A stretch of DNA of 64,000 bases, taken from the NCBI GenBank assembly GCA_964397195.1, contig CAYNGY010000004.1, positions 1,923 to 65,922 of the forward strand, written 5' to 3'. The translations under genes and the position numbers were made by a program. The DNA is from an uncultured Gammaproteobacteria bacterium. Lineage in GTDB: Bacteria; Patescibacteriota; Patescibacteriia; SBBC01; CAIJZX01. Each line of letters begins with the position of its first letter. Position 1 is the stretch's first letter. The notes beneath the pieces are model-generated. The model saw only the letters and a program-made list of their open reading frames with translations, had not been told where the DNA came from and searched no databases. Below, one piece after another: positions 18,846 through 51,766 of the stretch.

Positions 18846-18874
18846 ACCCTATCAAATCCCCTCAGTCTGGTCAA
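18846..18874 (-). promoter_or_regulatory. promoter P3 of high-GC cassette 1 (TTGACC-17-TAGGGT with GGGGATTTGA block)
   Basis: Minus strand TTGACCagactgaGGGGATTTGATAGGGT. Same architecture as P1 (29321) and P2 (51738). Confidence 0.5.
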
Positions 18875-18940
18875 CGCAAAGACTATATCGATCTGTCGAG
18901 TGACACCCAATACGCATGTCAGCCGAAATGTCACTCAAAC

Positions 18941-18970
18941 AAAAACAAAAACGCCCAACGGGCGTTTTTG
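18941..18970. terminator. bidirectional intrinsic terminator downstream of rplA
   Basis: AAAAACAAAAACGCCCAACGGGCGTTTTTG: a 5-bp GC stem flanked by an A-tract and a T-tract. Confidence 0.7.
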
Positions 18971-18983
18971 TGACGATCAGATA

Positions 18984-19661
18984 CTAGGCGGCGATTTTGA
19001 TCCCCGGCCCCATCGAACTAGTCAGGGTCACCGAAGCCAAATATGTTCCCTTCGTTTCCGCTGGCTTGGCTTTCTTGACTGCCTCGAGGAACGCTTCAGC
19101 ATTCGCTTGAATTTGCTCTGCCGAAAATGAGGCCTTCCCAATGATTTGGTGGAGGTTACCCGTTGTATCAGAACGGAAGCTGATTTTTCCGCCGTTCAAG
19201 GCTGTCACCATCGCCGCCGGATCGGCCGTGACGGTTTCGTTCTTTGGGTTCGGCATCAGCCCTTTTGTCCCGAGCGTCTTTGCAATCGGGGCGAGACTTT
19301 TCATCATATCCGGAGTCGCCAAAACGATGTCGAAATTCGTCCGATTCGTTTTTTTGATCTCGGCGATCAAATCGTCGTCACCCACGACCGCAGCTCCGGC
19401 CTCGGTTGCGGCTTTCGCCACGGCGCCCTTCGCAAACACCGCAATGGTCAGCTTCTTCCCGGTCCCGTGCGGCAACGATGCCGTGGCGCGAACCAGCTGC
19501 TCGGCTTTCGTCGGGTCAACACCGAGTCGCACGTGCATTTCGATGCTCGAATCAAACTTGGTGGTCGCGGTCTGTTTCACCAAGGCGACCGCTTCAGTGA
19601 GCGGATAAACCTTCTCCGCCTCGATCAGGCCGTAGGCGGCTTTATAGCGCTTGCTACGCAT
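18984..19661 (-). CDS. rplA: 50S ribosomal protein L1
   Basis: Full-length L1 homolog (…TKFDSSIEMHVRLGVDP…). Confidence 0.9.
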   Translation of the reverse strand: MRSKRYKAAYGLIEAEKVYPLTEAVALVKQTATTKFDSSIEMHVRLGVDPTKAEQLVRATASLPHGTGKKLTIAVFAKGAVAKAATEAGAAVVGDDDLIAEIKKTNRTNFDIVLATPDMMKSLAPIAKTLGTKGLMPNPKNETVTADPAAMVTALNGGKISFRSDTTGNLHQIIGKASFSAEQIQANAEAFLEAVKKAKPAETKGTYLASVTLTSSMGPGIKIAA

Positions 19662-19738
19662 ATCTGTGTCCTTTCGTGGTACAAGCCCCGCCTTCGTGCT
19701 CCATGCACTCCGGCGGGTCCCACAAATAGTGAATAAAC

Positions 19739-20704
19739 TTACGAAATTGGTTGGCCCGTTGGGACGGGTGGTTTTTGGGTTTCCTTACGAATCCGAGCGA
19801 AATGGTACCAGAAGAGCGGAATACCGACAAGGACCAACGGAATCGTGGTGGCGAGGTCGTTCGCTGTCGCCCCAGTATTCGAGTTTTGACGATCGCGATA
19901 GGTCTGCCAGTCTTTCTTCCAAGCCTTGGCCACCGCCACGTCATCCGCCGTAAACCCGCAATTTTTTTCACAGGCGATGACGCTATCAGGCAAGGCGGTC
20001 TCAGTATACAACCCGCCGACGGTTGGAATTGGCATGGTGTTCTTGTTGGCCGTATCAACCTTCAGCGCAACATTGAGAACGGTATTGATCAGCATCGCGC
20101 CGCCCACCACCGCCGTCACCAATCCGGCAAATGCCACGCCGTAGTAGTAGACCGAACGCAATGGCGATGGTTTTGGATGGACAGCGTACTCCTCGGCCGC
20201 GCCCTTGTTCATCCAGTTGATGAAGAGTAGGTAAAGCGGGAGAGCGATAATCAGAATCGCGAGTGCCCCCGCAATCGCCCGACGAGTTTGAATGGAGTAG
20301 GTACTCGTCGACTGCCAGTTCGCATAGGATGTCTTCAGATCGGCAAATGACTGCTTGTCAGCCGCCGTCATTTCGCAATCCGTCGTACAGGCATACGGTT
20401 GTGACGATTGGAATTTCGTATCGGTTGGATTGCCGGTCAGATAAAACGTTGGCGGCGTATTGTAGCGCTGGTTGTATTCCTTCGCCGTCGGCAAGACCGT
20501 TTCCTTCAGCCCAATGACAAGCAATGAGACGAGCGACCCGATGGTCATGACCAACATCAGCAACGAGACGATCGTATAGAACGCCTGTCGATAGCCGTAT
20601 TTCCGCTCCTGACGCATGTCTTGGACAATCGCGACCGCCACCAAGGCTAAGACGCCGACGCCCGCCACCATCATGAGCGGCCCGATGAATGAAAGTGTAT
20701 CCAT
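19739..20704 (-). CDS. polytopic membrane protein with an internally duplicated C-x3-C-x-[MF]TA[AD]D...W[QK] module, inserted between rplK and rplA
   Basis: Five predicted TM helices. Two loops carry ACTTDCEMTAADKQSFADLKTSYANWQ and ACEKNCGFTADDVAVAKAWKKDWQ respectively. Confidence 0.5.
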   Translation of the reverse strand: MDTLSFIGPLMMVAGVGVLALVAVAIVQDMRQERKYGYRQAFYTIVSLLMLVMTIGSLVSLLVIGLKETVLPTAKEYNQRYNTPPTFYLTGNPTDTKFQSSQPYACTTDCEMTAADKQSFADLKTSYANWQSTSTYSIQTRRAIAGALAILIIALPLYLLFINWMNKGAAEEYAVHPKPSPLRSVYYYGVAFAGLVTAVVGGAMLINTVLNVALKVDTANKNTMPIPTVGGLYTETALPDSVIACEKNCGFTADDVAVAKAWKKDWQTYRDRQNSNTGATANDLATTIPLVLVGIPLFWYHFARIRKETQKPPVPTGQPIS

Positions 20705-20731
20705 ACTGTCCCCCTCCTAGTTATATGGTAA

Positions 20732-21157
20732 TTACCCTTCGATCGTGATACCCATGTTGCGGGCCGTGCCTTCAATGATTCGCATCGCCCCGGCTAAATC
20801 TTTAGCGTTCAGGTCAGGCATCTTCTTTTCCGCAATTTCCTGGACTTGTGCTTTGGTCACTTTTCCGACCTTCGTCCGTAGCGGATCGGCGCTCCCTTTT
20901 TCAATCTTCGCCGCTTTCTTTAGTAGCTCGGAAGCCGGCGCGGTTTTCAGGATAAACGAATACGTGCGGTCCTCAAAAACAGTCAGCTCAACCGGCGTGA
21001 CTTCGCCCATTCGATCTTGCGTTGCATCGTTAAAACGCTTGACGAATTCCGCAATATTCAAGCCATGGGGCCCAAGGGCCGTTCCGACTGGCGGAGCCGG
21101 CGTGGCTTTGCCACCCGGAATTTGGAGTTTGATAACGAGTTTGATCTTCTTAGCCAT
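20732..21157 (-). CDS. rplK: 50S ribosomal protein L11
   Basis: [29 protein letters not shown]... typical L11. Confidence 0.9.
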
Positions 21158-21213
21158 ACAGATGTGAAATGAGGGAGTTGTCCGTCATGAGAAGCGCATG
21201 ACACACAACATGA

Positions 21214-21759
21214 TTAAACTTTCTTGATTTGAAGGAAATCGAGTTCCACCGGAGTTTCGCGTCCGAACATCGACACCAACACTTTGACCTTGCCGCGACC
21301 TTCGTCAACTTCCGCCACTTTTCCTTCAAAGTCTTTAAACGGACCGTCAACGATTCGCACCGGGCTACCGGCTTCAACGTCAATCTTGTATTTCGGCTCT
21401 TCCACACCCATCCGTTGCATCAAGGCCTTCACTTCCTCCTCGGAAATCGGGGTTGGCGTTGTACCTGAACCGACGAATCCGGTCACGTTCGGCGTATTAC
21501 GCACAACGTACCACGAGTCGTCAGTCACGATCATTTCTACCAAGACGTACCCGGGGAAAAGTTTCTCGGTGATAATCTTGCGCTTACCGTTCTTAATGCG
21601 AATCCGGTTTTCTGTTGGAATCAGCACCGTGAAGATCTTATCCTCCATGTCCATGGATTCGATACGTTGACGGAGGTTACGGGCCACGTTTTCTTCATAC
21701 CCGGAGTAGGTGTGAAGGACGTACCAGCGCTTTCCCTGTTGGAGAACTTGTTTGGCCAT
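21214..21759 (-). CDS. nusG: transcription termination/antitermination factor NusG
   Basis: NGN plus KOW domains (WYVLHTYSGYE..., GPFKDFEGKV). Confidence 0.9.
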   Translation of the reverse strand: MAKQVLQQGKRWYVLHTYSGYEENVARNLRQRIESMDMEDKIFTVLIPTENRIRIKNGKRKIITEKLFPGYVLVEMIVTDDSWYVVRNTPNVTGFVGSGTTPTPISEEEVKALMQRMGVEEPKYKIDVEAGSPVRIVDGPFKDFEGKVAEVDEGRGKVKVLVSMFGRETPVELDFLQIKKV

Positions 21760-21760
21760 G

Positions 21761-21949
21761 TTACTTCAGAATAACGTTCTGGAAAATATAGCTAAAAAGG
21801 AGGTCACATAACCCGAGAAACACCGCCACAAAGAGACTAATCCCAATCACGAGGAGGGTGTTATTTCGAGTTTCCAGCCATCGCGGCCAGCTGACTTTCC
21901 GGAGTTCCTCGAATGATTCGCGGAAGTACCGGCTTAATGATGTTGCCAT
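21761..21949 (-). CDS. secE: preprotein translocase subunit SecE
   Basis: 62 aa, single TM, F.ELRKVSWP motif. Immediately upstream of nusG. Confidence 0.85.
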   Translation of the reverse strand: MATSLSRYFRESFEELRKVSWPRWLETRNNTLLVIGISLFVAVFLGLCDLLFSYIFQNVILK

Positions 21950-21954
21950 AGTAA

Positions 21955-21981
21955 CTCACTTCGAAAAGGCCCTCGGGGCCT
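21955..21981 (-). terminator. intrinsic terminator after the M3 peptidase gene
   Basis: AGGCCC-TCG-GGGCCT hairpin followed on the minus strand by TTTTCGAAG. Confidence 0.45.
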
Positions 21982-22017
21982 CAACAGACCGAAGCATACC
22001 ATGTGGATTTCGGCCTG

Positions 22018-24051
22018 TCAACGTCCCCGGAGGCCGTAATGGCGCTCCAGGGGCCCCAAATCCGGCCCATGCCCCTTCAAGGCGCGAAAAGACGCCTCGC
22101 CAGTCCGACTGCCACCCACCGCCAAGATTTCCTGACGGTACCGACGACCTAATGCCGCCCAATGCTGCGGGTGGCCCCGTAACGGGGCAAAGGCATCAAT
22201 GGCTAATACTTCGGCCCACAGGTATGAGTAATACCCAGCATAGTACCCGTCACTAAAAATGTGACTGAAAGAATTGGGGAACCGATTCGTGCGCGACCAC
22301 GGAACGACACTGTAGTCGCGAAGAATCTGGTGCCAGAGTGTCGTTGCCACTCGGGCCGTAGGTTTTGTCTGTTGGTACAACCGAAGATCGTAGAGCGCAA
22401 ACTGCGTTTGGCGCAAAACGCGCATGGCCGCCATGTACCGTTGCGAGGCCAAGAGTTTTTTTCGCAGATCTGCCGGGAGTTTTTTCGCTCCCGACCGCGC
22501 AAACGTATCCCAAACCGTCGGTTCCCACGCAAACTGCTCAAACCACTGGCTCGGAAGTTCAATCACGTCCCACTCAACACCGTTCATACCGTCAACACCG
22601 GCCACCAGCGAGTCGCTCAGCAAGTGGTGCAAGGCGTGACCGAATTCATGGAACAACTCGGCAACCTCGCTATGGTTCAACCATGTTTCTCCGTTACGAT
22701 CGGGCGCCGGAAGGTTACAGACGATATAGGCCGCACCCGAGTGTAGCTTACCTCGCACCACGCGTCGTGGACGATCCTGGTTCATCCAGGCCCCACCGCG
22801 TTTCTCCGGACGACCGTGGAGGTCCAAGAGGATCTCGCCGCGCTTCCCCTGACGATCGCGGACTGATGCCATCATCAGGCCACGCCGATATCCGTTCGCC
22901 CACGGCGAAATCGTCATCGTCACCCCAAAGACCCGCTCAGCGGTTTTTGCTAATCCGGCTAAAACGGCGCGCATCGGGAAATACTGACGTAAGGCTTCGG
23001 CGGTAATACTGAAACGCTCATGACGGAACCGTTCCGCTACATAATCAACATCCCACGGTTGGAGTTTCGACAGGCCGATCCGAGCGCCATATCGGGACAA
23101 GGCTTGAAATTCAGCTGCGGCCGCTTTTTTTGACCGATGCGCTAAGCGAGTGATGAGGCGTGTCGCGCGTTCAGGGCGCTTCGCCATTCGATCGGCTAAA
23201 CGAGAATGGGCGTACGTGGGGTACCCAAGCAGTCGCGCCATCGCCTGTCGTTCTCGGAGGAGCTGTAAAATAATCGACGCGGTACTCATGGATCGAGGTC
23301 CAAGCTCCGAGGCAACAGCAATCGATTGCTGGTACAGCCGCTCGCGGAGTGACCGGGACGTCGCCGTACGCATCACCACCCCAGATTCGGCCCGACGAAT
23401 AGAAAATCGCCAGCCGGGAAATCCTTGACGTTTCGCTCGCTGCTTGGCGACACGGATAATATCATTTGGAATCCCGTCTAACTCACCGACGTCCGTTACA
23501 TCAACGACGACGGCATTCGTCGCATCAAGTAACCGCTGACTGAAGACCGAACGTAAATTCGCCACAGATCGAAAATGTTTTTCGAGTTTCCGTTTCTTGC
23601 TGGGTGGCAATCCCGCCCCGGCCATATACTGGCAAAAAATCATCCGTTTTAGGGCCCGGCGCTGCACCACCGATAGCCCCGACGTCCGCAGCAAGGCCTC
23701 TCGACGCGCCAACAGGCGTGTCGATTGTTGCTCTCGGGTTGTAAGTTTTGTCATCTCGCGATCACCAAACGTATTGATCTGTTTCCATCGCGGGGCATTT
23801 TCCGTTTGGAAAAAATGATGGCACCGATTCCAATACACCGTCAGTTCATCGTCAACGTTTTGGAACGGTACCACCGTATTTTCCCACGTCGGTTGGGCCG
23901 TATCACCTTCGACAGCCGTGATCACTTTTTTCCAGGCCGTCAGAATTGACTGCAGATGCGACAAAATCTTGGTCGGCTGCTGATGAAACAGCGACACCAT
24001 ATCACCCCAGCTCGGATCGATCGACGGCGTCTTAGACACGCCGTTCTTCAA
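22018..24051 (-). CDS. M3-family zinc metallopeptidase (oligopeptidase A/Dcp-like)
   Basis: HEFGHALHH (HExxH) in an M3 thimet-oligopeptidase context, 677 aa. Confidence 0.75.
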   Translation of the reverse strand: MKNGVSKTPSIDPSWGDMVSLFHQQPTKILSHLQSILTAWKKVITAVEGDTAQPTWENTVVPFQNVDDELTVYWNRCHHFFQTENAPRWKQINTFGDREMTKLTTREQQSTRLLARREALLRTSGLSVVQRRALKRMIFCQYMAGAGLPPSKKRKLEKHFRSVANLRSVFSQRLLDATNAVVVDVTDVGELDGIPNDIIRVAKQRAKRQGFPGWRFSIRRAESGVVMRTATSRSLRERLYQQSIAVASELGPRSMSTASIILQLLRERQAMARLLGYPTYAHSRLADRMAKRPERATRLITRLAHRSKKAAAAEFQALSRYGARIGLSKLQPWDVDYVAERFRHERFSITAEALRQYFPMRAVLAGLAKTAERVFGVTMTISPWANGYRRGLMMASVRDRQGKRGEILLDLHGRPEKRGGAWMNQDRPRRVVRGKLHSGAAYIVCNLPAPDRNGETWLNHSEVAELFHEFGHALHHLLSDSLVAGVDGMNGVEWDVIELPSQWFEQFAWEPTVWDTFARSGAKKLPADLRKKLLASQRYMAAMRVLRQTQFALYDLRLYQQTKPTARVATTLWHQILRDYSVVPWSRTNRFPNSFSHIFSDGYYAGYYSYLWAEVLAIDAFAPLRGHPQHWAALGRRYRQEILAVGGSRTGEASFRALKGHGPDLGPLERHYGLRGR

Positions 24052-25162
24052 AACGGAAGGTCACCATCGCCAGCCCAACCAGAATCACCGACCAACCCAT
24101 CATCCAGTACAAATCACCGGCAATGGCACCAATGCCGGCGCCATTTGCCATGACTTCCCGCAAACCGTGAGTCAGGTATTGGAGAGGTAAATAGTGCACA
24201 ATATGTTGCAGCCACGACGGCATCCCGTCGGTTGGGAAGAACGTGCCACCCAAAAATAACATCGGAAAAACGACGAGGTTCGCTATGGCCGGTACAGATT
24301 CGACAGTATTGGCGAGACCGGAAATGGTAAAACCTAAACCCAAGAACATAATGCTGCCGAGGAGAGCAACGAGCGCGACCAGCCACAACGACCCGTAGAT
24401 ATGCGTATGAAGTAGCCAGACACCAACCGACGTTAGGATCGCTGACTGGACCAAGGCCACAATCAACCGCGTCAAGACTTGGGCGGTCACAAACTGCTGC
24501 GGCTTCATCGGCGTCGCCAACAGACGTTTGAGTATCCCTTTTTCTTTGTAATCGGCAAAAACAAACGCCACCGAAAATACCGCCATCTGCATCAGGGCCA
24601 TACCGACAATACCCGGGAGCAAGAAATCAATGTATTTCGTTGACCGGACGCTCACCTCTTCGGCCCTCAGCGCAAAAAGCTGTGGTGCCCGGGTCATGGC
24701 CAATGTCGTCTTATCGAGGATTTGGTTCATGATGATTTCCACCATCTTGGCCTGCTGCAACTGCCCGACATTCTCCAACACGGTGACTGTCTTTGTGGAA
24801 ACTTGCTGGAGGTTTGCCGCCGACGGTCCGGATGGGATCAAATCGTTCGGGATGAGCAAAACGGCGGCTAATGTGTTCTTCTTGAGCGCGGTCCGGAGCG
24901 ACGCCTCTGTGTCCATGGTCACAGAAATATTCGGCGCCTGCTTCAATTGATCGATAAACTGTTGCGTGCCAGCATTCGGTTCCGCCGCCACAATGCCAAT
25001 CTTCGTTGGGACCACCTTATCGAATCCGACGAACCCAAAAATCGTCATGATCACCAAGGGCATGAACAGCGTAAAAAACAACGACTGTTTATTGCGCACG
25101 AACATCTTCATCGTTGAAATCGTCAGCGCTAGGGTGGTGTTCATCGCCATGGGTTTCGCCAT
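24032..25162 (-). CDS. ABC-2 type transporter permease
   Basis: Six TM segments and an ABC-2 family pattern. Follows the ATPase gene. Confidence 0.75.
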   Translation of the reverse strand: MAKPMAMNTTLALTISTMKMFVRNKQSLFFTLFMPLVIMTIFGFVGFDKVVPTKIGIVAAEPNAGTQQFIDQLKQAPNISVTMDTEASLRTALKKNTLAAVLLIPNDLIPSGPSAANLQQVSTKTVTVLENVGQLQQAKMVEIIMNQILDKTTLAMTRAPQLFALRAEEVSVRSTKYIDFLLPGIVGMALMQMAVFSVAFVFADYKEKGILKRLLATPMKPQQFVTAQVLTRLIVALVQSAILTSVGVWLLHTHIYGSLWLVALVALLGSIMFLGLGFTISGLANTVESVPAIANLVVFPMLFLGGTFFPTDGMPSWLQHIVHYLPLQYLTHGLREVMANGAGIGAIAGDLYWMMGWSVILVGLAMVTFRFEERRV

Positions 25163-25163
25163 A

Positions 25164-26090
25164 CTATTCGCGTAAACTACGACCGGTCAGTTTCAGGAAC
25201 ACATCTTCGAGCGTCGCCTGATGGAGCTGTAAATCGAAGATAGAAAATCCATGTTGGACTTCATAGCTGAAGAGCGCCGGGAGTGTCTTCTCCGGATCAT
25301 TTGTGAGTATCCGATAGGCGTGATCATCACGATCAACCTTTTCCGCACCCGGAAGCGACGCCATCACGCCGTCGGCCGGATGGGCGGTCACATGAAATTC
25401 AACCGTCGAACCAATGTCGGCCAACTTCAATAATTCCGCCGGTGTCCCGAGGGCGATGATTTTTGCGTGGTCCATAATGGCAATCCGGTCACACAACACC
25501 TCGGCTTCTTCCATATAGTGCGTCGTCAGGATAATCGTCTTCCCCTGCTTTTTAATGTCATGGATCAGGTCCCACAAATTCCGTCGCGCCTGCGGATCAA
25601 GGCCGGTTGTGGGTTCATCTAAATAGATCGCCTTAGGGTCATTGACCAGCGCCACGGCGATCGATAAGCGTTGTTTCTGACCGCCGGAAAGTTCTTTGAC
25701 CTGACGTTTGGCTTTTTCTTCGAGCTGGACTTGGCGCAAGAGCGCCATCGGCTCAACCCGTCGTCCGTACAACGCCCCAAAGGTCGTCAGTAATTCAGTC
25801 AGACTCAGGCCATCGAAAAAAGATGAGGCCTGTAATTGAACACCAATCAGGTGTTTGACAGCGTTCGTGTGACGCTGAACATCGAGTCCATCAAAGGTCA
25901 CCTGTCCGGAGGTAATTGGCTTCAATCCTTCAAGCATCTCCAAGGTAGTCGTCTTTCCAGCCCCATTCGGCCCGAGAATGCCAAAGGTTTCGCCACGTCG
26001 CACAGCGAAGGAAATCGCATCAACCGCGACTAGGTCGCCGTACTGTTTCGTCAGTTTCTGCGCTTCAATAATCGTATCCATACCGCCCAC
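25164..26090 (-). CDS. ABC transporter ATP-binding protein
   Basis: Walker A GPNGAGKTT, signature LSGGQKQR, Walker B. Confidence 0.9.
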   Translation of the reverse strand: MGGMDTIIEAQKLTKQYGDLVAVDAISFAVRRGETFGILGPNGAGKTTTLEMLEGLKPITSGQVTFDGLDVQRHTNAVKHLIGVQLQASSFFDGLSLTELLTTFGALYGRRVEPMALLRQVQLEEKAKRQVKELSGGQKQRLSIAVALVNDPKAIYLDEPTTGLDPQARRNLWDLIHDIKKQGKTIILTTHYMEEAEVLCDRIAIMDHAKIIALGTPAELLKLADIGSTVEFHVTAHPADGVMASLPGAEKVDRDDHAYRILTNDPEKTLPALFSYEVQHGFSIFDLQLHQATLEDVFLKLTGRSLRE

Positions 26091-26155
26091 ATCCTAGCAC
26101 ATCAGCGGCCTTCCCCGCAACCACTTTTTACGCAAAAAAGGCCGCCTAGGTTGCC

Positions 26156-29276: not shown

Positions 29277-29320
29277 CTAAGAATAGCATAAAAGCCCCCG
29301 ACCCGCCAAGCCGTCTCGAC

Positions 29321-29349
29321 TTGACAATCCGGCCATTTTATGATAGTGT
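29321..29349 (+). promoter_or_regulatory. promoter P1 (TTGACA-17-TAGTGT), a copy of the cassette promoter family
   Basis: cTTGACAatCCGGccaTTTtATGATAGTGT aligns with P2 and P3. Confidence 0.5.
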
Positions 29350-29385: not shown

Positions 29386-29595
29386 ATGGCCAAGCAAACG
29401 GACACGGCGGCCATGATGGCTACCGCGGATGGGAAGACGGAACTTCCAAGAGAAACCATGCACCCGCTGACGCGCGCCAGGCGCCGTCACCAGGCCGTTA
29501 TGCACCGGCCCGACTCGTCTCTAGCCGCACTGCAGACGCTGCTCCATCAGTGGCACTCCAGTCGTACTGGAACGGATCACCACGGCGCCAATTAA
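29386..29595 (+). other. small ORF (69 aa) or cis-antisense sRNA in a high-GC mini-cassette
   Basis: SD GGAGG 6 nt upstream of the ATG. About 63% GC. Antisense to the 3' end of the 460-aa gene. The predicted peptide is low-complexity, so coding status is uncertain. Confidence 0.3.
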
Positions 29596-30880
29596 CACGC
29601 GCCGCATGCACAAACCCGGGGTCGGCGACCACGAGTTCGCTCGGTCGCCGCCTCCCCCGCCCCTGTGGCACCTCAACTGCACGGGCGGATTTTTGTTCCA
29701 AGAGTCTTTCCAGATGAGCAACCAACGCTACATGATCGACTAAAAACTCCTCTGGTGCCTGACGCTCCTGAAGAACACTGACCTGTTCCCGCAATTGCGT
29801 GAGTAACGCCGCCGGGATTTGCTGTTCCCAGAGATAATCTTTTCGCCAGTCTTCAACTTCGGGTACACCGACTTTTGCCGCTGGGCCAACAGTATCGGCC
29901 GCGCGTTCTAAATAATATCGATTCGACATGGTTTTTATTCGATCTCGGGTGACTGCGAAAACAACTCTAATTCCAGTAGTGTTTTTTGGGACATCGGCGG
30001 TATCGTATTTTGAGGTGACAAATGGATTTGCGACCGAATAGTGCAGCTTCTCTGCTAATGAAGGCAGGCTCCCGGAAACAGTAAAATCTGTCGCTAGACG
30101 AATCTTTCGACTCTGTGCATCATTGGTAACCGGCAATTTAATACTGACCCAGCCATCAAAATGTTGGAGAACATCCGAATGCTCATTTGTAGGACTAACC
30201 TGAACCTCAGTGTTATCACCAAGGGCTTGTGAATCAGCTAACTGTTGGAAGAACGACAGTTCGAGTTGTTCGTTCTCACGCATTTCTTCCTTACTAATCT
30301 CGTGAGTAAGGCCACCTTGAAACTCTCTATAAGTCTTTTCTCGAACCATATCAAGACTCTCCGCATCTCGTTCAGAGAAAGTTATTGGCTCACCATCCGG
30401 CCCATGTGTCGCCCGTGTATTCCAAGATATTTGGTCAAGTTGTCCTTGCCGTGTCGCCTCTGCCTCAAGCTGAACCCCAATCTCTCGTTCTCGTTCCGCC
30501 ATTGCCGCCGCCTGATGCGCGAATCGAGCCTCGACTTCTCGGGCCTGCCATAGGCTAAACTTTTTTTCCTGTTCGCGAATATTCCAAATGTAATCCCGGT
30601 CGGTCAGCGCCTTGATTCTTGGCTTCTTTAGCGTGCCATCGAGAATGAGCTTTCTCCGATATGCCTCAGCTATATCGTCCGTTGTTTGCGCCTCGGTAAA
30701 CCCAGCCGCTCGTTCTTGCTCGACCAATGCCGATTCAAATGATCGTATGGCCTGCATTCGAGCATCACCTGCCATACTCTCAATGGAGAGTAAAAACTCC
30801 TGCACCGCCTCGGGCGTGGTCAGAACCGTATCTGACGCGACTGGTTCAGTTTCAGTGGCGAATTCCTCTTCAGTGCTCAT
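29498..30880 (-). CDS. hypothetical soluble coiled-coil protein (460 aa), ATGA-coupled to pheT
   Basis: No TM segments and a central Glu/Arg-rich coiled coil. The last 80 or so codons lie in the high-GC mini-cassette and may be a read-through extension. Confidence 0.5.
   Translation of the reverse strand: MSTEEEFATETEPVASDTVLTTPEAVQEFLLSIESMAGDARMQAIRSFESALVEQERAAGFTEAQTTDDIAEAYRRKLILDGTLKKPRIKALTDRDYIWNIREQEKKFSLWQAREVEARFAHQAAAMAEREREIGVQLEAEATRQGQLDQISWNTRATHGPDGEPITFSERDAESLDMVREKTYREFQGGLTHEISKEEMRENEQLELSFFQQLADSQALGDNTEVQVSPTNEHSDVLQHFDGWVSIKLPVTNDAQSRKIRLATDFTVSGSLPSLAEKLHYSVANPFVTSKYDTADVPKNTTGIRVVFAVTRDRIKTMSNRYYLERAADTVGPAAKVGVPEVEDWRKDYLWEQQIPAALLTQLREQVSVLQERQAPEEFLVDHVALVAHLERLLEQKSARAVEVPQGRGRRRPSELVVADPGFVHAARVNWRRGDPFQYDWSATDGAASAVRLETSRAGA
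29623..29695 (+). terminator. tandem hairpins plus T-tract ending the P1 transcript
   Basis: GGCGACCACGAGTTCGCTCGGTCGCC hairpin, then CCGCCC...GGGCGG followed by ATTTTTGTT. Confidence 0.4.
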
Positions 30881-40452: not shown

Positions 40453-40521
40453 GATCGTGAAGAAAGTGGAGTGAACGTAATCGAGGACTGCACCGTACCA
40501 CTCGCCCTATCCGGCGTCAAT

Positions 40522-45000: not shown

Positions 45001-45003
45001 ACG

Positions 45004-45384
45004 TTATGCGTGAAAAAGAAGTGATTGTTGTAGTTGTCGTAAACGACCGTCTAAACTGGCGTCGATGCGACGATCATCGACAATAACCGCCACGCCCCGT
45101 CGAAGTTCCGGTCGGATCACGACCGTCACATCGGTTTTTGTAAGCTGATCGGCCAGGGCATCCGCCGCACGCGGCGTCGCGGCTTCAATTGTTACCCGAC
45201 GTCGGCCCCGACGAGCTGATTCGATATTTCGCAGATGTTCGAGCACTCGCGGCATGAGGCGCATCGCCCGATCGCGTCGGAGGCGATGGAGGATACGTGG
45301 CGCTATCTGCGCCACCGATGCTTTCGGCGCCGTCAAGGCCATATCGATGGCCATCGCATACTGGCGAGCGCTCAGCCGTTTCAT
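45004..45384 (-). CDS. atpH: F-type ATP synthase delta subunit, short form (126 aa, lacks most of the N-terminal domain)
   Basis: Matches only the OSCP/delta C-terminal region. ATGA overlap with atpF. Confidence 0.7.
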   Translation of the reverse strand: MKRLSARQYAMAIDMALTAPKASVAQIAPRILHRLRRDRAMRLMPRVLEHLRNIESARRGRRRVTIEAATPRAADALADQLTKTDVTVVIRPELRRGVAVIVDDRRIDASLDGRLRQLQQSLLFHA

Positions 45385-45887
45385 GATTTCGATGATAATT
45401 CTTCAAGCGCCTCACGCGCCGACTGCGTCTCAAAGGCCTTTCCGGATTTCTTCTCGATCACCAAGCCAGCGGCTTGCACCACGAGGGTCGCTAGGTCTTT
45501 CTTCGCTTCCGAGATCATGGCGGTTCGTTCACGACGAAGTTCGGCGCGAGCTTCCGACATCACCTTCTCAGCGTCGGTTTTCGCGTCGGCCACCAGCCGC
45601 TCGCGCATCACCTGGGCCTCGGCTCGCGCCGCCACTAAGATATCACCTGCTTCGCGGCGGGCTTGGGTCGCAATGTCTTTATGTTGGGCCTCGGCGCCGG
45701 CCAAGGCTTCGCGAGTGGCTTTTTCCTGATCAACAGTTTTGGCCGCTAAGGCCCGACGAGCATCGAGCACTTTCAAAATTGGGGCGAACGCGAATTTTCG
45801 CAGCACCCACAAAACGATCAGGAACGTGACGATATTCGCCACGAGGAGTTTCCAGTCGATTCCGAGTTTATGAATAAGTTCCCCCAT
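45381..45887 (-). CDS. atpF: F-type ATP synthase subunit b
   Basis: N-terminal TM then a long Ala/Glu/Arg-rich helix. Confidence 0.85.
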   Translation of the reverse strand: MGELIHKLGIDWKLLVANIVTFLIVLWVLRKFAFAPILKVLDARRALAAKTVDQEKATREALAGAEAQHKDIATQARREAGDILVAARAEAQVMRERLVADAKTDAEKVMSEARAELRRERTAMISEAKKDLATLVVQAAGLVIEKKSGKAFETQSAREALEELSSKS

Positions 45888-45898
45888 CGGGTGTCGGA

Positions 45899-46898
<1,000 letters not shown>

Positions 46899-46900
46899 GA

Positions 46901-47158
46901 TTATTGTTTCTTCGGTGTCTCTTTTTCAAGATCACGAAGGAGTTGAGAAAATTTTCGAACGAGGAAAACGGTCGTCACGAGGACGGCCATGGCCATCCCG
47001 CCCAAGAAGAGCCACGGCGTGGTACCAAACCGGCGATCGAGCCAGCGACCACCGAGGCCGAAGAGGAGAAGCGGAATGACGATCAGATACCCCAGCTCGA
47101 AGACCAATCCGAGGGCTACCCAATATGGTCGACGCGGGGTGTCAGGTTGGGTCTTCAT
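46901..47158 (-). CDS. atpI: AtpI/AtpZ-like small membrane protein (85 aa)
   Basis: Internal start MKTQPD... of track ORF 46901..47398; two TM helices; leads the atp operon. Confidence 0.6.
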   Translation of the reverse strand: MKTQPDTPRRPYWVALGLVFELGYLIVIPLLLFGLGGRWLDRRFGTTPWLFLGGMAMAVLVTTVFLVRKFSQLLRDLEKETPKKQ

Positions 47159-47198
47159 GGTGCATTCACATCTTTCATCCACAATCAAAAGCGCCGAG

Positions 47199-47253
47199 AG
47201 TATACTCGTTTTTCGCGAAATGCTCAAGACTGGGAAAACTTTTTGGCTAAGAT
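47199..47253 (-). promoter_or_regulatory. atp operon promoter (TTGAGC-17-TATACT) with upstream ATCTTAGCCAAAAA element
   Basis: -10 at 47204-47199 and -35 at 47227-47222 (minus). The 14-nt element at plus 47240-47253 lies 35 nt upstream of the -10, identical to the thyX promoter. Confidence 0.5.
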
Positions 47254-47277
47254 TAGCGAATCTTCGCAAATCACACC

Positions 47278-47305
47278 TTGACACTCCTGGTAAAAGGCAT
47301 AGTCT
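47278..47305 (+). promoter_or_regulatory. promoter of high-GC cassette 2 (TTGACA-16-TAGTCT)
   Basis: The track ORF 'start' (TTG 47278) is actually the -35 hexamer. Confidence 0.4.
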
Positions 47306-47340
47306 TCCGCCACCAATCGCACCACCCCTGCCACCCGAGC

Positions 47341-47874
47341 ATGGAGGTCGCCGTGGCCAAACACCACCGCCAAAAGCAAGCCACCCCGCGGGGAACAATC
47401 GACGAGCAGGAACTCCGCGCCGCCCAAGCCGCCTACGGCCGAAGCAACGAGGAGCGTGTCTTGTACCTGCTCGAACGGCACATTTCCAACGCCACCCATC
47501 GCCCGCCGTGGCTCGTCTCGATTCGACGCGCCACCGAGGAAGAAGACGTGCTCGGGATCGACCTTGTCGCTATCACCGTCGACAGCCCGAACGTCTACAT
47601 CCAGATCAAGAGCAGTGAGAGCTTTAGGAAGATCCATATCGACAAGGGTCGGAAGCTCTGGCGCGCCGGCGCGACGGTCCACATCACCGGCGTCATGATC
47701 GCCAATCATGCCCTGACGGACAAGAAGATCATCGGCCGCGGTATGGCGACGATCAGCCGCGTCTATCGCACCGTCAAGAACCTCGGCTCGAACATCATGC
47801 CGTCGTACCGTCACACGGGCGACGATATCACCGACTGTGACCACCACCCGGTCAACACCCCGGAGGTCCCATGA
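47341..47874 (+). CDS. NERD-domain (nuclease-related) protein, high-GC cassette 2
   Basis: GRSNEERVLYLLERH...EDVLGIDLVAITVDSPNVYIQIKSSE matches the NERD pattern GxxxE...L...EIDhhhh...hhIEVK. About 62% GC. No SD. Confidence 0.45.
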   Translation: MEVAVAKHHRQKQATPRGTIDEQELRAAQAAYGRSNEERVLYLLERHISNATHRPPWLVSIRRATEEEDVLGIDLVAITVDSPNVYIQIKSSESFRKIHIDKGRKLWRAGATVHITGVMIANHALTDKKIIGRGMATISRVYRTVKNLGSNIMPSYRHTGDDITDCDHHPVNTPEVP

Positions 47875-48017
47875 CCAAGCCGATCAACGTCGACTACGAG
47901 CATGAGGCACTGCGGTACGGCTGGATCCAGCGCCTCAAGGACCTGCTGACCCTCCCCTTCGCCGTCCTCGGCTTCATCTTCGTCTGGCTGTACGAGAAGA
48001 TCACTGGCGGCGACTGA
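47871..48017 (+). CDS. 48-aa single-TM peptide, ATGA-coupled to the NERD gene (not in the ORF track, under 60 aa)
   Basis: MTKPINVDYEHEALRYGWIQRLKDLLTLPFAVLGFIFVWLYEKITGGD. High GC3. Confidence 0.4.
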   Translation: MTKPINVDYEHEALRYGWIQRLKDLLTLPFAVLGFIFVWLYEKITGGD

Positions 48018-48041
48018 ACCGCCTACGCACATCCCTACCCC

Positions 48042-48095
48042 CCCCGGCTCACCACCGGGGCGGTTTTTCTTAATGAGAGCACCTCTCAGTAAGTG
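48042..48095 (+). repeat. terminator-plus-palindrome module, copy A
   Basis: CCCCGG-ctcaccac-CGGGG-CGG-TTTTT then CTTAATGAGAG-cac-CTCTCAGTAAG. About 85% identical to copy B. Confidence 0.6.
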
Positions 48096-48162
48096 ACTGC
48101 CGACCACGGAGCAGCTAGCTTTCCCATCCAGAACAATTCCTATGTCCGAAAATAGTATGCGG

Positions 48163-48405
48163 TCACTCCAAACGATCAACGCGTGTAGCGAGCTCATTAA
48201 ATTCAAAGCGATAGACCATTTGGTCCTGACGAAGCTCGATATGCTCGAGTGTGGTCTCAATCTTGTTCAACCGAAGGCTGACCTGGTCAAAGCCGGTTTT
48301 TGTGGCCGCCGCTAATGTATCGATGGTCGACTCGAGGCGTTCGAGACGCGTATCGACCCTCTGAATAATGGTAGTGAACATTTCCGGGGTGAGTTCTTCG
48401 GACAT
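48163..48405 (-). CDS. hypothetical 80-aa coiled-coil protein
   Basis: Heptad-rich (RLERLESTIDTL...LRLNKIETTLEHIELRQD). Own promoter TTGACA-16-TACGAT and SD GAAGAGG. Normal GC. Confidence 0.5.
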   Translation of the reverse strand: MSEELTPEMFTTIIQRVDTRLERLESTIDTLAAATKTGFDQVSLRLNKIETTLEHIELRQDQMVYRFEFNELATRVDRLE

Positions 48406-48512
48406 ACGGCCTCTTCAGCCAAGCCCAACATACGTTTTTATCGTAACGTCGGAGGTTATCCTGTCAAGAAGGGGTCGTTTTCTATATGAGGCTAACTCAC
48501 ATTAAACCGTCA

Positions 48513-48562
48513 CCGCCCTACGGGGCGGTTTTTTCCTTACTGAGAGTTCCTCTCAGTAAGAA
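48513..48562 (+). repeat. terminator-plus-palindrome module, copy B
   Basis: CCGCCC-tac-GGGCGG-TTTTTT then CTTACTGAGAG-ttc-CTCTCAGTAAG, a perfect 11-bp inverted repeat. Ends 2 nt before the nudix stop. Confidence 0.6.
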
Positions 48563-49051
48563 CTATGCGAGCTGGTCCGGTTTTTCGTGCAACTCCTGGC
48601 GCAAAATCTGCGCCGTGTACTCCGGCGTTGTCGGGCGGTCGTAATGGAACTGCCCAACAAAATCCTTGTTTGCAAGAAACATCGGCATCCAATACGCATC
48701 AGCCGCCCACATTTCTTTCAATGGCACCTCATGTTCACTAAACCACATCGGCCTCATTTCGTCGGTCTCACGTGGCGTGCCACGAAACTTCGTCACTCGA
48801 AAAACATGCGCCTCGCGGATCGTCGGCTCCGATTCGAACGTGAAGGTTAAAACACCAACTTCCTTCATCTCAACTACCTCCACTCCGGCTTCTTCCTGAA
48901 GCTCACGCTTGGCCGCCGCCACAATAGATTCATTCAACTCAACCTTGCCACCAAACCCATTCCACTTCCCCGCGCCGAATCCGCGCTTCTTCATCCCTAA
49001 CAACACCCGGCCATCCTGGTCGATGATCGCGATGGTCAGGAGTTTTTTCAT
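48563..49051 (-). CDS. NUDIX hydrolase (MutT-like)
   Basis: Nudix box GKWNGFGGKVELNESIVAAAKRELQEEAG. Confidence 0.85.
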   Translation of the reverse strand: MKKLLTIAIIDQDGRVLLGMKKRGFGAGKWNGFGGKVELNESIVAAAKRELQEEAGVEVVEMKEVGVLTFTFESEPTIREAHVFRVTKFRGTPRETDEMRPMWFSEHEVPLKEMWAADAYWMPMFLANKDFVGQFHYDRPTTPEYTAQILRQELHEKPDQLA

Positions 49052-49056
49052 GCGGA

Positions 49057-50097
49057 CTATTCGTTTTGATTCGGCTTCTCGATCTGCATCGGCTCCACCG
49101 TCGATTCAATATCCGCCACCTTCATCACGTCTTTCTCGACTTTCGCAAATTCTTTGTAGGCGATGTTATATTGATTGACGGTCGTACCGAGCGAGTTACC
49201 GAGTTTCGCCATATACGCATCGTACGACTGCAGGTGCTTGGCGAGGACTTCGACGTTCTTGCGAATTTCTTTTGCCGACTCCTCAATTTGCATAGCTCGC
49301 AAACCCTGGAGCACCGTTTGCAGATAGGCGAAGAACGAAGTCGGCGAAACGATAATGACGTGCTTTTCTTTAAAGGCGTAATCGATCAGATCGCGCGACG
49401 AAACACCGGCCGCCCCGACTTTATTCACCAGCAGATCATAATAGATACCCTCGGCCGGAATAAACATAAACGCGAAGTCCATGGTATTCTCCGCCGGGCG
49501 GATATATTTTGACGTCTCGTCAATCCGATTCTTTAAATCCTGTTTAAACGTCTTCTCAACCGCATCATGATCGGCTCCCGGCCCAAGCTCCGCCAAACGG
49601 TTGTAGTTTTCTAAACTAAACTTTGCGTCGACCGGGATAATTTTTTCCTGAATGAAAATTGCTGCATCAACGATTTCCCCGTCCTTAAATTTATACTGCA
49701 ACTTGTAATTCTTCGGCGGGAGCACGTTTTTTAGGACCGTTTCCAAATAGTATTCCCCGAGTACCCCGCGCTGCTTGGGATTCTTGAGTGTATCCTGCAG
49801 TTTTTGTAGTTGATCGGCAAAGGAAACCACCTGACGATTCGTCTCGTCGAGTTTCGTCAAGCGCTCGGTCACATCGCGCACAATCTTGGCGCTCTCCCCT
49901 AACTGAGACTGAATCGACTTCTGCATCGATTCGCCCTGACGGTCCATCCGATCGTGGATCTGCTTCAGGTCTTCTTTCAACATCAAAAACGAGGCCGAAT
50001 CGTCCGGCTTCTGCATCTTCTTCATCGCCTGGGCCTGAAACCACATTACCAGGCCGAAACCGACCACCACGAGAATAATGATAATCCATGTTTCCAT
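49057..50097 (-). CDS. rmuC: DNA recombination protein RmuC
   Basis: N-terminal TM, coiled coil, RmuC domain (IIPVDAKFSLENYNRL...). Confidence 0.75.
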   Translation of the reverse strand: METWIIIILVVVGFGLVMWFQAQAMKKMQKPDDSASFLMLKEDLKQIHDRMDRQGESMQKSIQSQLGESAKIVRDVTERLTKLDETNRQVVSFADQLQKLQDTLKNPKQRGVLGEYYLETVLKNVLPPKNYKLQYKFKDGEIVDAAIFIQEKIIPVDAKFSLENYNRLAELGPGADHDAVEKTFKQDLKNRIDETSKYIRPAENTMDFAFMFIPAEGIYYDLLVNKVGAAGVSSRDLIDYAFKEKHVIIVSPTSFFAYLQTVLQGLRAMQIEESAKEIRKNVEVLAKHLQSYDAYMAKLGNSLGTTVNQYNIAYKEFAKVEKDVMKVADIESTVEPMQIEKPNQNE

Positions 50098-50170
50098 GGC
50101 GGTATCCTAGCATGAGCGTCAGGAATGGCAAAACCGTGCTGGTCAACACTTCGAGACGGTCTTTTCCTGA

Positions 50171-50214
50171 AAACAAAACGCGGGTGGCGCTGGGATCGAA
50201 CCAGCACCACCCGC
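50171..50214 (-). terminator. intrinsic terminator of high-GC cassette 3; 14-bp stem with a T-loop-like TTCGATC loop
   Basis: Minus strand GCGGGTGGTGCTGG-TTCGATC-CCAGCGCCACCCGC followed by GTTTTGTTTT. Looks like a tRNA acceptor/T-arm minihelix. Confidence 0.6.
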
Positions 50215-50226
50215 AACGGGGAACAG

Positions 50227-51675
50227 CTACTTCTTCGCGTGAAGCGTGAACGGGACATCGACCACGACGTTCGCCGAGGTCCGGCGGCCGTTCGTGGGTT
50301 CGACCCGCGCTTCGAGGGTGATCGTTGCCAGCGGCAGCGCCACGGCGATGTGGCCATCGATCCGCTGGGTGAACCCACCGCGCGGGGCGTAGCGCACGGG
50401 TTCGAGCCCGCCGCCGAACGTCACCGCGCCATGAGTGTACTGCGCGTCGAGCACCGCACCTTCGGCCAGCGTCAGCCGATGCGTGCGATACGTGAAGACC
50501 ATCGCCCCGAGATCGACCCCGTGACCGGACCAGGCCAGCTTCGCCATCGGTCCGACGTAGGGGTGGACGCCGTCCGGCTTGACGAGCGTCCCGAGCGATC
50601 CACCGACATTCAGCGCCATCGCCGGGTGGGAGAGAAGGTCATAGCGCCCGAACAGGTCGAGCGCACTGCCGTCGGCCATCACCGTCGGATTGACGAGCGT
50701 CCGCCCGCCATCGAAGGTGTAGCCGTACATCGAGCCTCGACCGAAGGCCCACTCGCCCGCCGTCAGGGAGACGGTGTGCGGCGCGGCCACGGCCAGGGTG
50801 AAACCGAACGTCACGAACAGCGCGACGAAGGCGGACAGCAGGACAGCGAAGCGGGACATGCGGCTCTCCTTGAGAGTGGGCGGTGCACGCCCACGAGTGA
50901 TTGATCGTGACGGTGCCGTCACGACCCTCGTGACTGCACCACTGATACCGAGAACGAGCAGAAACACGACCGCCCAGTGCATTGCCGGCGGGAGTTCAGC
51001 CGTCTCGGGTGAAACAGGTGATGCACTCTGACACTGCGTCGAAGCCGTGATCTGCGTCTGCGTCGTCGGGAGGAGCACGGTGGGTGCTTTCCCGATTGTC
51101 AGCACAGACAGTAGCCCGAGCAAGATCAGTAGGTACGGGAACACGAGCATCACCCCCCAGGCCACGCCGCCGCCGATTCCGATCGACGATAGCGTCTTAG
51201 CCAACAGGAGGTACCAACGCCCATGGACCATGCCATACGCATCCAAGTATCCCGGACCCCACTGGCGGTTATGAGGATCGCGGTTGAAGTATCCCGACAT
51301 GCCGGCCGATCCGTAGGCCGTCCATGCCTGGCTCATCAACTCGTCGGTCACCCATTCCTTGCGCACGTGCGTCGAGGCCTTTGTGCCGCCTCCTACCCAG
51401 CGATGCGTCAGGTCGACAAGAATGGCCGGGAAATCGGCATGGTAAACGGTCGGATTCTCCGCCACCAACGCCATCGCCTTGTTCCAGTCTCGCCAGAACT
51501 CGTCCGGGTTTTGCGGATCGAGCAGACCAATCTGCGCCATCGTCCGGCTATGCAACGCACCGTCAGCGACGATCGTCCGCAAGTCGGCCTGAGCCCAGAT
51601 CAGTACCAGCGTGATTACAACACCTCCGATCAAGACCGGAGGACGTAACCAAATGTTGCGCTTCAGAAGAATCAC
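50227..51675 (-). CDS. hypothetical polytopic membrane protein (about 483 aa), high-GC cassette 3
   Basis: About 65% GC. The track start (ATG 51747) lies inside the promoter -10. Preferred start is GTG 51675 after SD AAAAGGGGG. Five or more TM helices, then a C-terminal secreted-type domain. Confidence 0.5.
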   Translation of the reverse strand: MILLKRNIWLRPPVLIGGVVITLVLIWAQADLRTIVADGALHSRTMAQIGLLDPQNPDEFWRDWNKAMALVAENPTVYHADFPAILVDLTHRWVGGGTKASTHVRKEWVTDELMSQAWTAYGSAGMSGYFNRDPHNRQWGPGYLDAYGMVHGRWYLLLAKTLSSIGIGGGVAWGVMLVFPYLLILLGLLSVLTIGKAPTVLLPTTQTQITASTQCQSASPVSPETAELPPAMHWAVVFLLVLGISGAVTRVVTAPSRSITRGRAPPTLKESRMSRFAVLLSAFVALFVTFGFTLAVAAPHTVSLTAGEWAFGRGSMYGYTFDGGRTLVNPTVMADGSALDLFGRYDLLSHPAMALNVGGSLGTLVKPDGVHPYVGPMAKLAWSGHGVDLGAMVFTYRTHRLTLAEGAVLDAQYTHGAVTFGGGLEPVRYAPRGGFTQRIDGHIAVALPLATITLEARVEPTNGRRTSANVVVDVPFTLHAKK

Positions 51676-51737
51676 CCCCTTTTCGCGCGAAGATGATCCG
51701 GCGAGAATGCCGGATGTATGCAAATGTGCGACCCCGC

Positions 51738-51766
51738 AAACTATCATAAATCCCCGGTTTTGTCAA
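51738..51766 (-). promoter_or_regulatory. promoter P2 (TTGACA-17-TAGTTT with CCGGGGATTTATGA block)
   Basis: Minus strand cTTGACAaaaCCGGGGATTTATGATAGTTT. Nearly identical to P1 and P3. Confidence 0.5.

Follow-up and report, generated by a model that had tools for sequence, protein, structure and literature searches.

How do three nearly identical promoter sequences come to stand before three GC-rich units in a series of housekeeping genes? The question is raised by a 64-kb stretch of contig CAYNGY010000004.1, from a member of the Patescibacteria, called below, in its whole length, the window. The three sites, P1, P2, and P3, precede a small open reading frame (ORF) next to gyrB, the gene of a 483-residue protein (p483), and the thymidine kinase gene tdk, respectively. 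A first-pass annotation of this DNA had explained them by one reused promoter, a common donor or mobilization mechanism, and cassettes of the phage moron type. P1-P3 are more likely to be three independent, vertically inherited housekeeping promoters of the host. Their likeness is then that of a lineage consensus, and the high GC content of the units is a separate matter.

Under this explanation, P1-P3 would be served by the housekeeping sigma factor of the sigma-70 type (group 1). The consensus would begin with a TTGACA -35 element, after which A's are frequent. It would further comprise a spacer of 17 bp with a T-rich 3′ end, the TG of an extended -10, and a -10 box of the form TAnnnT, in which TAG is a common variant. 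The three sites would resemble each other as near-perfect matches to this consensus, without need of a shared donor, a mobile promoter, or a regulator of their own. P1 would drive the small ORF or an antisense RNA divergently from gyrB, P3 would drive tdk, and P2 would drive p483 with a leader that sequesters the Shine-Dalgarno (SD) sequence. If so, several promoters of a small genome can look nearly identical simply by each matching the host consensus strongly, and a working promoter consensus, read from sequence, is available for a Patescibacteria lineage.

Promoter architecture and the lineage consensus

The three promoter sequences quoted in the first-pass annotation are present verbatim in the window (Table 1). 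All have the spacing of sigma-70 promoters (TTGACA or TTGACC, 17 bp, and TAGTGT, TAGTTT, or TAGGGT), and TGATAG supplies an extended -10 in P1, P2, and P3. The -10 boxes lie 36-62 nt from the start codons of their units, with GGAGG, GAGGTG, or GGGGGTGA ahead of the starts. The sites resemble the extended -10 ('TGn', TRTG -16 region) sigma-70/SigA promoters of E. coli and Gram-positive bacteria in the TTGACA -35 element, the 17-bp spacer, the TG one base before TAnnnT, and the T-rich stretch before TG. P1 and P2 read TATG-A-TAG..T, which fits the TRTG of such promoters. Unlike the known examples, which have TATAAT, the -10 boxes here are TAG-type, and they are recognized from sequence alone. 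The core architecture of -35 element, 17-bp spacer, extended -10, and -10 box is broadly conserved in bacteria, including one species of the Candidate Phyla Radiation (CPR) with start-site data (PMC12641261).

The same architecture is common in the window and its relatives. The scan took in the window with its duplicate contigs and 80 loci from relatives (1.35 Mb, with 1.3 Mb in the relatives alone; relatives are cited by locus number). The strict pattern TTGAC-N15-TGnTAnnnT matches the window six times, against 0.05 expected, and three of the six matches precede genes of ordinary GC content (control promoters in Table 1). A relaxed scan of the window adds promoters at thyX, gyrB, and rmuC. 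Across the 1.35 Mb, 66 strict matches were found where our own arithmetic predicts about 3 for ten fixed bases, and the -10 box is of the TAG type in 20 of them. Relatives account for about 59 strict matches beyond those of the window. In the clade profile, A is preferred at positions 6-8, just after the -35 element, and T at positions 17-19, just before TG. These are the positions common to P1 and P2.

Near-identical promoters also recur elsewhere in the clade. The -10 region of the p483 promoter in L121, TGATAGGGT, is identical to that of P3, which indicates that such matches recur by consensus. A second look-alike group consists of two control promoters, at 5415-5443 and 40492-40520 on the minus strand, which share TTGACG/T..GGGCGAG..TGGTACNGT and are a further sign of this recurrence. 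In three relatives (L020:333, L024:2778, and L039:1818, plus strand), TTGACGCC-CCATAGGC-GAGTGGTACAGT stands before nusG.

Table 1. Positions of the promoters, genes, and RNA features discussed, numbered from the first nucleotide of the window.
Feature	Position	Strand	Description
P1 (putative promoter)	29321-29349	+	TTGACA-17-TAGTGT, extended -10 (TATGATAGTGT); back to back with the gyrB promoter
P2 (putative promoter)	51738-51766	-	TTGACA-17-TAGTTT; TATG upstream of -10
P3 (putative promoter)	18846-18874	-	TTGACC-17-TAGGGT; TG at -15/-14; for tdk only
Control promoter	21993-22021	-	TTGACA-17, TGGTATGCT; before secE-nusG-rplK (ordinary GC)
Control promoter	5415-5443	-	Architecture of P1-P3; before a small ORF and the L25 gene (ordinary GC)
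Control promoter	40492-40520	-	Architecture of P1-P3; before a methyltransferase gene (ordinary GC)
Probable gyrB promoter	29280-29309	-	TTGGCG-18-TGCTATTCT; divergent from P1; relaxed consensus scan; gyrB by Pfam
69-codon ORF after P1	29386-29595	+	SD GGAGG, 6 nt, ATG; 3′ part antisense to the end of a 460-residue protein gene
tdk	18104-18802	-	Thymidine kinase, 232 residues; Pfam TK; GC/GC3 0.630/0.806
tdk intrinsic terminator	18058-18085	-	12-bp stem, -25.8 kcal/mol, z -4.3
thyX promoter	17944-17973	-	TTGACC-18-TGCTAGGCT
thyX	17049-17873	-	Flavin-dependent thymidylate synthase; Pfam Thy1; GC/GC3 0.635/0.851
thyX unit 3′ tail	16759-17048	-	GC 0.63; 78-codon ORF (17046-16810); terminator hairpin and U-tract
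p483 leader	51676-51731	-	Covarying hairpin CCGGC...GCCGG, then UCAUCUUC, able to pair with SD GGGGGUGA
p483 ORF	50227-51675	-	483 residues; N-terminal helical membrane part, RAPP, internal SD, ATG and signal peptide, predicted 12-strand beta-barrel; GC/GC3 0.632/0.767
RAPP codons of p483	50878-50889	-	Within p483
Internal SD-like AAGGAG	50866-50871	-	Within p483
Internal ATG	50857-50859	-	Within p483
p483 intrinsic terminator	50179-50215	-	-31.3 kcal/mol, z -6.0

The mutual likeness of P1-P3 is modest. The 'embedded block' that they were said to share is weaker than claimed: P1 lacks GGGG (its corresponding sequence is CCATTTTATGATAG), and P3 matches P2's GGGGATTT..GATAG only with a 2-nt gap. 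Among the three sites, a search for GGGGATTTNTGATAG with up to three mismatches recovers P2 only. The earlier pattern TTGACM-N17-TAGKKT matches the window exactly three times, at P1, P2, and P3, against 0.02 expected, but this enrichment is circular because the pattern was derived from the same three sites. Over the 19 unconstrained positions, ungapped identity is 11 for P1-P2 (top 2.2% of all clade promoter pairs), 9 for P2-P3 (top 8%), and 7 for P1-P3 (top 27%). The spacer likeness is ordinary, that of P1 and P2 being mildly high among the 15 possible pairs in the window.

Several points weigh against the reading of P1-P3 as ordinary host promoters. The promoter activity and start sites of the three sites are themselves predicted, and the scan of the host genome is confined to 64 kb of it. 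The P1-P2 identity of 11/19 lies in the top 2% of pairs, and GGGGATTT is present in both P2 and P3. Outside the window, the P2 orthologue of L003 has GGGATTT, and the tmk promoter of L010 has GGGG..TGATAG. In the window, the units richest in G+C at third codon positions (GC3) are those behind the thyX promoter and the three promoters of the TGATAG type, whereas the TGGTAY type precedes ordinary genes. This association is post hoc and rests on small numbers, and it cannot be fully explained here. Finally, the tdk and p483 orthologues are raised in GC3 in several relatives, with which a single old transfer fits poorly.

These observations bear on two alternatives. In the first, GGGGATTT and TGATAG would be an operator or promoter subclass for a small regulon, such as one for nucleoside salvage that includes tdk and a possible channel. 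TGATAG is found in the window only at P1-P3, the P2 orthologue of L003 retains GGG(G)ATTT, the L010 tmk promoter has the similar string given above, and the predicted barrel of p483 resembles 12-strand channels that include the nucleoside channel Tsx. However, the block is not kept in other p483 orthologues (CCCGATTTT in L119, CCCTATTTT in L121, absent in L124-L126). P1 does not have it, and the T-tract is general in the spacers of the clade. In addition, no regulator gene lies nearby, and the TAG-type boxes of relatives precede miscellaneous genes. A common regulator is thus considered improbable.

In the second alternative, the link between promoter and GC content would be real, and stand-alone genes with foreign or atypical codon usage would have gained strong consensus promoters independently. 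This could account for the near-consensus promoters of tdk, thyX, p483, and the small ORF, of which the first three also have terminators, and thyX does join a host-type promoter to a foreign coding sequence. Nevertheless, equally good promoters precede ordinary genes, and P1 and P2 are old, conserved across deep relatives. GC3 shows no association in relatives either: genes downstream of TAG-type promoters have a mean GC3 z of 0.04 (n=8), against 0.28 (n=26) for the others (Mann-Whitney p=0.37). Such convergent selection is unlikely. The claim that the motif is specific to GC-atypical genes falls by the same data, an outcome that the first-pass annotation had itself named as refuting it.

Host genome and orthologous promoters

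The genome is that of a Kerfeldbacteria-like member of the Patescibacteria (CPR). In a search of 185,579 species genomes, the best relatives of rplA were from 'Candidatus Kerfeldbacteria' and other Patescibacteria metagenome-assembled genomes, at up to 75% identity. Pfam annotation gives a continuous housekeeping series that includes prfB, L25, ftsW, dnaE, thrS, miaA, gatB, L1, L11, nusG, gyrB, pheST, the ATP synthase operon, rmuC, tatD, metG, proS, and clpB. All annotated genes of the window are housekeeping or metabolic, and the annotation contains no integrase, transposase, or phage gene across the 64 kb. The window shares synteny with 80 relatives, in which the order pheT-gyrB...nusG-rplK-DUF5671-rplA-[tdk/tmk/thyX/thyA-folA]-gatB-miaA-thrS is kept. 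An independent Logan assembly shows the same rplA-tdk-thyX and tatD-p483-rmuC junctions, which disfavors a chimeric assembly. The DUF5671 gene encodes a membrane protein of 321 residues (19739-20704, minus strand) and lies between rplK (L11) and rplA (L1), as it does in most Kerfeldbacteria-like relatives.

Each of the three promoters has counterparts in relatives. P1 stands 77 nt upstream of the gyrB start, on the other strand. Promoters of the form TTGACA-17-TAGGTT occupy the equivalent place in L010 and L014, at 78 nt and likewise on the opposite strand, and the start context GGAGG-N-CGTC-RTG is kept after each. P3 has counterparts at tdk orthologues, TTGACA-17-TAGGGT in L004 and TTGACG-17-TAAGAT in L010. 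A TTGACA-17-TAnnnT promoter and a leader precede every p483 homologue examined (L003, L119, L121, L124-L127, and L129). Relatives had been expected to show the housekeeping synteny with the cassettes missing. Instead, the P1 promoter is found in L010 and L014, and genes of the tdk, tmk, and thyX types fill the interval between rplA and gatB.

Composition of the units and the moron explanation

The deviant composition of the units is borne out. GC3 is 0.767-0.851 in tdk, thyX, and p483 and 0.46-0.72 in the other genes of the window, and the three genes have a common third-position profile, with A3 below 0.1 and T3 of 0.10-0.14. The 69-codon ORF behind P1 has a GC of 0.63 and a GC3 of 0.71, over only 210 nt. 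Expression-linked codon bias was considered as the cause of high GC3 and is unlikely, given that the ribosomal-protein and ATP-synthase genes are not GC3-rich. The patchy elevation of GC3 among relatives, together with the turnover of the rplA-gatB interval, favors repeated or older transfers from unsampled sources. For tdk, p483, and the small ORF, the preferred inference is that high GC derives from transfers, older or from unsampled sources, into a locus with frequent turnover.

Each cassette had been described as having its own promoter and intrinsic terminator. This is correct for tdk, thyX, and p483, whereas the P1 unit yielded no terminator. P3 had also been assigned to a joint tdk-thyX cassette. 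It serves tdk but cannot reach thyX, which lies beyond the tdk terminator and has a promoter of its own. Horizontal transfer of the cassettes holds for thyX only, which does not stand behind P1-P3 and whose donor is bacterial.

Relatedness of the cassettes to phages was not found. The viral-contig scan gave no match to tdk, and among GenBank phages only two Bacillus phages matched it, at 31-32% identity over half the protein. For p483, two metagenome-contig scans and one viral-contig scan gave no homologue, and GenBank phages gave no match. The viral thyX sequences of IMG/VR reach only 57-58% identity. As for integron cassettes or a mobile promoter, flanking direct or inverted repeats at tdk-thyX amount to chance-level matches, with none that is meaningful, and no integrase or transposase Pfam domains are present in the window. 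Neither tdk nor p483 is closer to a distant lineage than to its relatives.

The units resemble phage morons in being stand-alone, in carrying a promoter each (in tdk, thyX, and p483 also a terminator), and in a composition unlike that of their flanks. They are unlike morons in that no prophage is present, a conserved series of housekeeping genes flanks them, close homologues of tdk and p483 in phages are missing, and the promoters and genes occur at the same places in relatives. The first-pass reading of moron-like cassettes, their promoter supplied by one donor or mobilization mechanism, has in its favor that the units are autonomous and GC-rich, that thyX is truly foreign, that the p483 unit (promoter, leader, gene, and terminator) occupies a different neighborhood in each relative examined, as a movable unit would, and that the content of the rplA-gatB interval changes. 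It is nevertheless largely refuted and very improbable. Phage, integrase, transposase, and repeat signatures are missing, and neither tdk nor p483 has close relatives among viruses. The promoters are conserved at orthologous genes and fit a consensus of the host that stands before ordinary genes too. No such promoter is present at the donor-type thyX locus, and the sole proven import, thyX, is not behind P1-P3.

The rplA-gatB thymidylate interval

A thymidylate locus is conserved in the rplA-gatB interval, with a gene content that changes from one related genome to the next. The genes present are tdk and thyX in the window; tdk, tmk, and thyX in L010; tmk, tdk, and thyX in L011; tdk and tmk in L004; tmk and two copies of thyX in L005; tmk and a long thyX in L006-L008; and tmk, thyA, and folA in L014. 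Taken together, the window (16731-18874) and L004-L014 and L073 present tdk, tmk, two thyX types, a thyX of 540 residues, and thyA with folA.

The detectable homologues of tdk are all Kerfeldbacteria-like, at 45-48% identity, and its grouping, at 45-56%, is likewise with Kerfeldbacteria-like tdk only. The GC3 of tdk is 0.78 in L010, where the locus median is 0.58, and 0.69 in L004, where neighboring genes have 0.36-0.57. The thymidylate genes of L005, L011, L014, and L073 are not raised in GC3.

In relatives with a tmk gene after rplA, a conserved leader motif, CCAAGAA-N-GGAGGGC-loop-GCCCTTTGACAA, stands right after the -10 box (L005:6515-6650, L006:2880-3015, L007:10670-10795, L008:5505-5650, and L010:11478-11670). 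The motif forms a hairpin with a variable loop and a partly variable stem, and it is a candidate cis-regulatory RNA. A search of Rfam gave no match at E up to 1, and the window and three relatives gave none in Rfam either. The motif is absent from the window, whose interval contains no tmk. At the gatB end of the interval in the window, only 9 nt separate the end of a TAGAAT -10-like box (16731-16760, minus strand) from the ATG of gatB, without a visible SD. The gatB mRNA may be leaderless or near-leaderless.

thyX as an imported gene

The thyX gene is best read as a bacterial xenologue from a high-GC clade that replaced the resident thyX, has been partly ameliorated, and is expressed from a host-type promoter. 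Two observations carry the case for transfer, the protein identity and the position of the gene inside the donor clade. The window protein is 76-84% identical to hundreds of proteins of 265 residues. One of them, P0021 (84% identity), is encoded on a contig of 73% GC with CO-dehydrogenase, TonB, and FdhD genes, and another is annotated as Candidatus Eisenbacteria. P0021 and the Eisenbacteria ThyX are themselves 83% identical, so that the window thyX falls within the diversity of that clade. By contrast, it is only 38-42% identical to the Kerfeldbacteria thyX of the close relatives L010 and L005, with whose genomes rplA is 66-75% identical.

The composition of thyX is intermediate. GC3 is 0.97 in the donor-type thyX, 0.85 in the window, and about 0.60 in the host median. 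Synonymous differences run in one direction, with 27 changes from donor GC to window AT and one in reverse. The nucleotide identity of 82.5% to the homologue from the 73%-GC contig was considered as a clock and dropped, because saturation of GC3 by itself makes two genes share codons. In the donor-type locus, the DNA upstream of thyX has no comparable promoter. The viral thyX sequences of IMG/VR were rejected as the source, as nothing else in them is shared with the window.

Thymidylate synthases are known for lateral transfer and for the non-orthologous displacement of thyX and thyA by each other. The window agrees with this in that its thyX nests in a high-GC clade and the same interval in relatives holds the other thyX type, the 540-residue thyX, or thyA-folA. 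It differs from the known pattern in that the exchange lies inside a conserved CPR locus and the incoming gene is on a host-type promoter. The locus offers a clear case of a thymidylate synthase gene brought from a high-GC bacterium into a CPR genome, within a conserved interval that turns over.

A terminator hairpin at about 16794-16769, with a U-tract (-21.2 kcal/mol), closes the 3′ tail of the thyX unit. The 78-codon ORF of this tail overlaps the thyX stop (TGAccATG), lies in a GC-rich stretch of about 260 nt, and encodes a very basic tail, RRRRRKKSRR. The DNA downstream of thyX, including this ORF, has no similarity to the donor locus.

The p483 unit

The p483 protein belongs to a very rare, unannotated family. 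An exhaustive profile search of 1.84 billion clusters found 16 representatives, and all members with known context are on Patescibacteria-like contigs. The genomic neighborhood is different in every relative examined, which indicates that the promoter belongs to the gene. GC3 is raised in the homologues of L003, L119, and L124-L126 but not in that of L121.

The leader of p483 is conserved as a structure. RNAalifold of seven leaders of the family gives 13 pairs, five of which have compensatory changes, and no Rfam family matches. Leaders of the family are found at 51676-51731 of the window (minus strand), L003:370-445, L119:2240-2336, L121:5900-6000, and in L124-L126. The start codon is apparently CTG or GTG in the window and ATG or TTG in relatives. 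In the p483 terminator, the loop and stem include GGTTCGATCC, which is the T-arm consensus of tRNAs. A tRNA-like attachment site was rejected, however, as neither ARAGORN nor Rfam finds a tRNA or tRNA fragment. A hairpin at the -35 element of P2 (CCCGGT...ACCGGG with GGGGATTT) was also considered as the terminator of tatD and rejected, because its fold is no better than that of shuffled sequences (z -0.17).

The protein consists of two parts joined by a variable linker. Within this linker, all 14 aligned members keep R263, P265, and P266 without change and have either A or G at position 264. Three to five codons after this RAPP motif, an SD-like AAGGAG, CAGGAG, or GGAGG is conserved in nucleotides even where the amino acids differ, and it is followed by ATG or GTG and then by a typical signal peptide. 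In L127 and L129 (L127:3001-4382 and L129:3001-4415), the two halves are separate genes that overlap by 22 nt or by ATGA. The upstream ORF stops 8-13 codons past RAPP, and a gene of 195-196 residues begins at that ATG. In the window and most other members, the two parts are one continuous ORF in which the internal SD and ATG are kept at the nucleotide level. R[AG]PP occurs three times in the 368,000 residues of the clade that were counted, against 6.2 expected, and one of the three is in p483.

An AlphaFold model built with 14 sequences contains an N-terminal helical membrane part and a 12-strand antiparallel barrel at residues 300-476, with a predicted local distance difference test (pLDDT) score of about 80-90. 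Foldseek relates the barrel to KdgM, NanC, OmpG, Tsx, and intimin-type barrels, with E of about 1e-6 and a template modeling (TM) score of up to 0.73 (KdgM, target-normalized). There is no match to Pfam, and identity to the fold-search matches is 8-13%. The predicted barrel has the strand count of the 12-strand channels KdgM/NanC, Tsx, and OmpG and is preceded by a signal peptide. Unlike KdgM/NanC-type channels, it does not have a C-terminal aromatic residue and does not belong to their sequence families.

RAPP and RGPP are the two most robust cores of ribosome-arrest peptides. They are depleted from proteomes and are typically found C-terminally in small proteins, membrane or secreted, whose genes lie upstream of a regulated gene (PMC12992588, PMC10987492, PMC10951233). 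As in ApdA, ApdP, and the RQH family described there, R-[A/G]-P-P in p483 follows membrane segments and stands 3-5 codons before the next SD and start. Three differences are evident. The upstream protein of p483 has about 270 residues, is not a short peptide, and is mostly fused in frame to the downstream part. The downstream product is a predicted beta-barrel, whereas known RAPP systems control the Sec/YidC machinery. The internal SD also lies within the expected footprint of the stalled ribosome, unlike in known RAPP systems, which is a caveat for the arrest model. In single-sequence folds, the RAPP codons pair with the SD region in several members. Sequestration of the SD by these codons was rejected, as RNAalifold gives no consensus structure.

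A tentative proposal is that the P2 unit is a doubly controlled module for the expression of a secreted 12-strand beta-barrel in a CPR bacterium. The leader would sequester the first SD. RAPP or RGPP at the end of a membrane 'sensor' of about 265 residues would then stall the ribosome 3-5 codons before the internal SD, and the barrel would be made from the internal start, which in relatives is that of a separate gene, under the control of nascent-chain stalling. A CPR case of this kind of RAPP-type arrest regulator appears to be absent from the reports cited above (PMC12992588, PMC10987492, PMC10951233). The family would combine an arrest-type RAPP/RGPP motif with an internally initiated beta-barrel.

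If the proposal is correct, RAPP-type regulation extends to the Patescibacteria, and the barrel would be an outer-membrane-like channel in a lineage that, to our knowledge, is generally thought to have no outer membrane. Such a barrel might insert into the membrane of a host cell or serve the uptake of nutrients or nucleosides.

The P1 unit and the gyrB region

The peptide encoded by the 69-codon ORF after P1 has no similarity to those of the equivalent ORFs in L010 and L014. As the downstream peptides are unrelated, the product of P1 may be a fast-evolving small protein, or it may be an RNA antisense to the 3′ end of a convergent gene for a protein of 460 residues. This gene (29498-30880, minus strand) has no Pfam match and the lowest GC3 of the window (0.46), and its 3′ end overlaps the ORF or transcript from P1 convergently. 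Its counterpart in L010 is 25% identical and lies at the same place.

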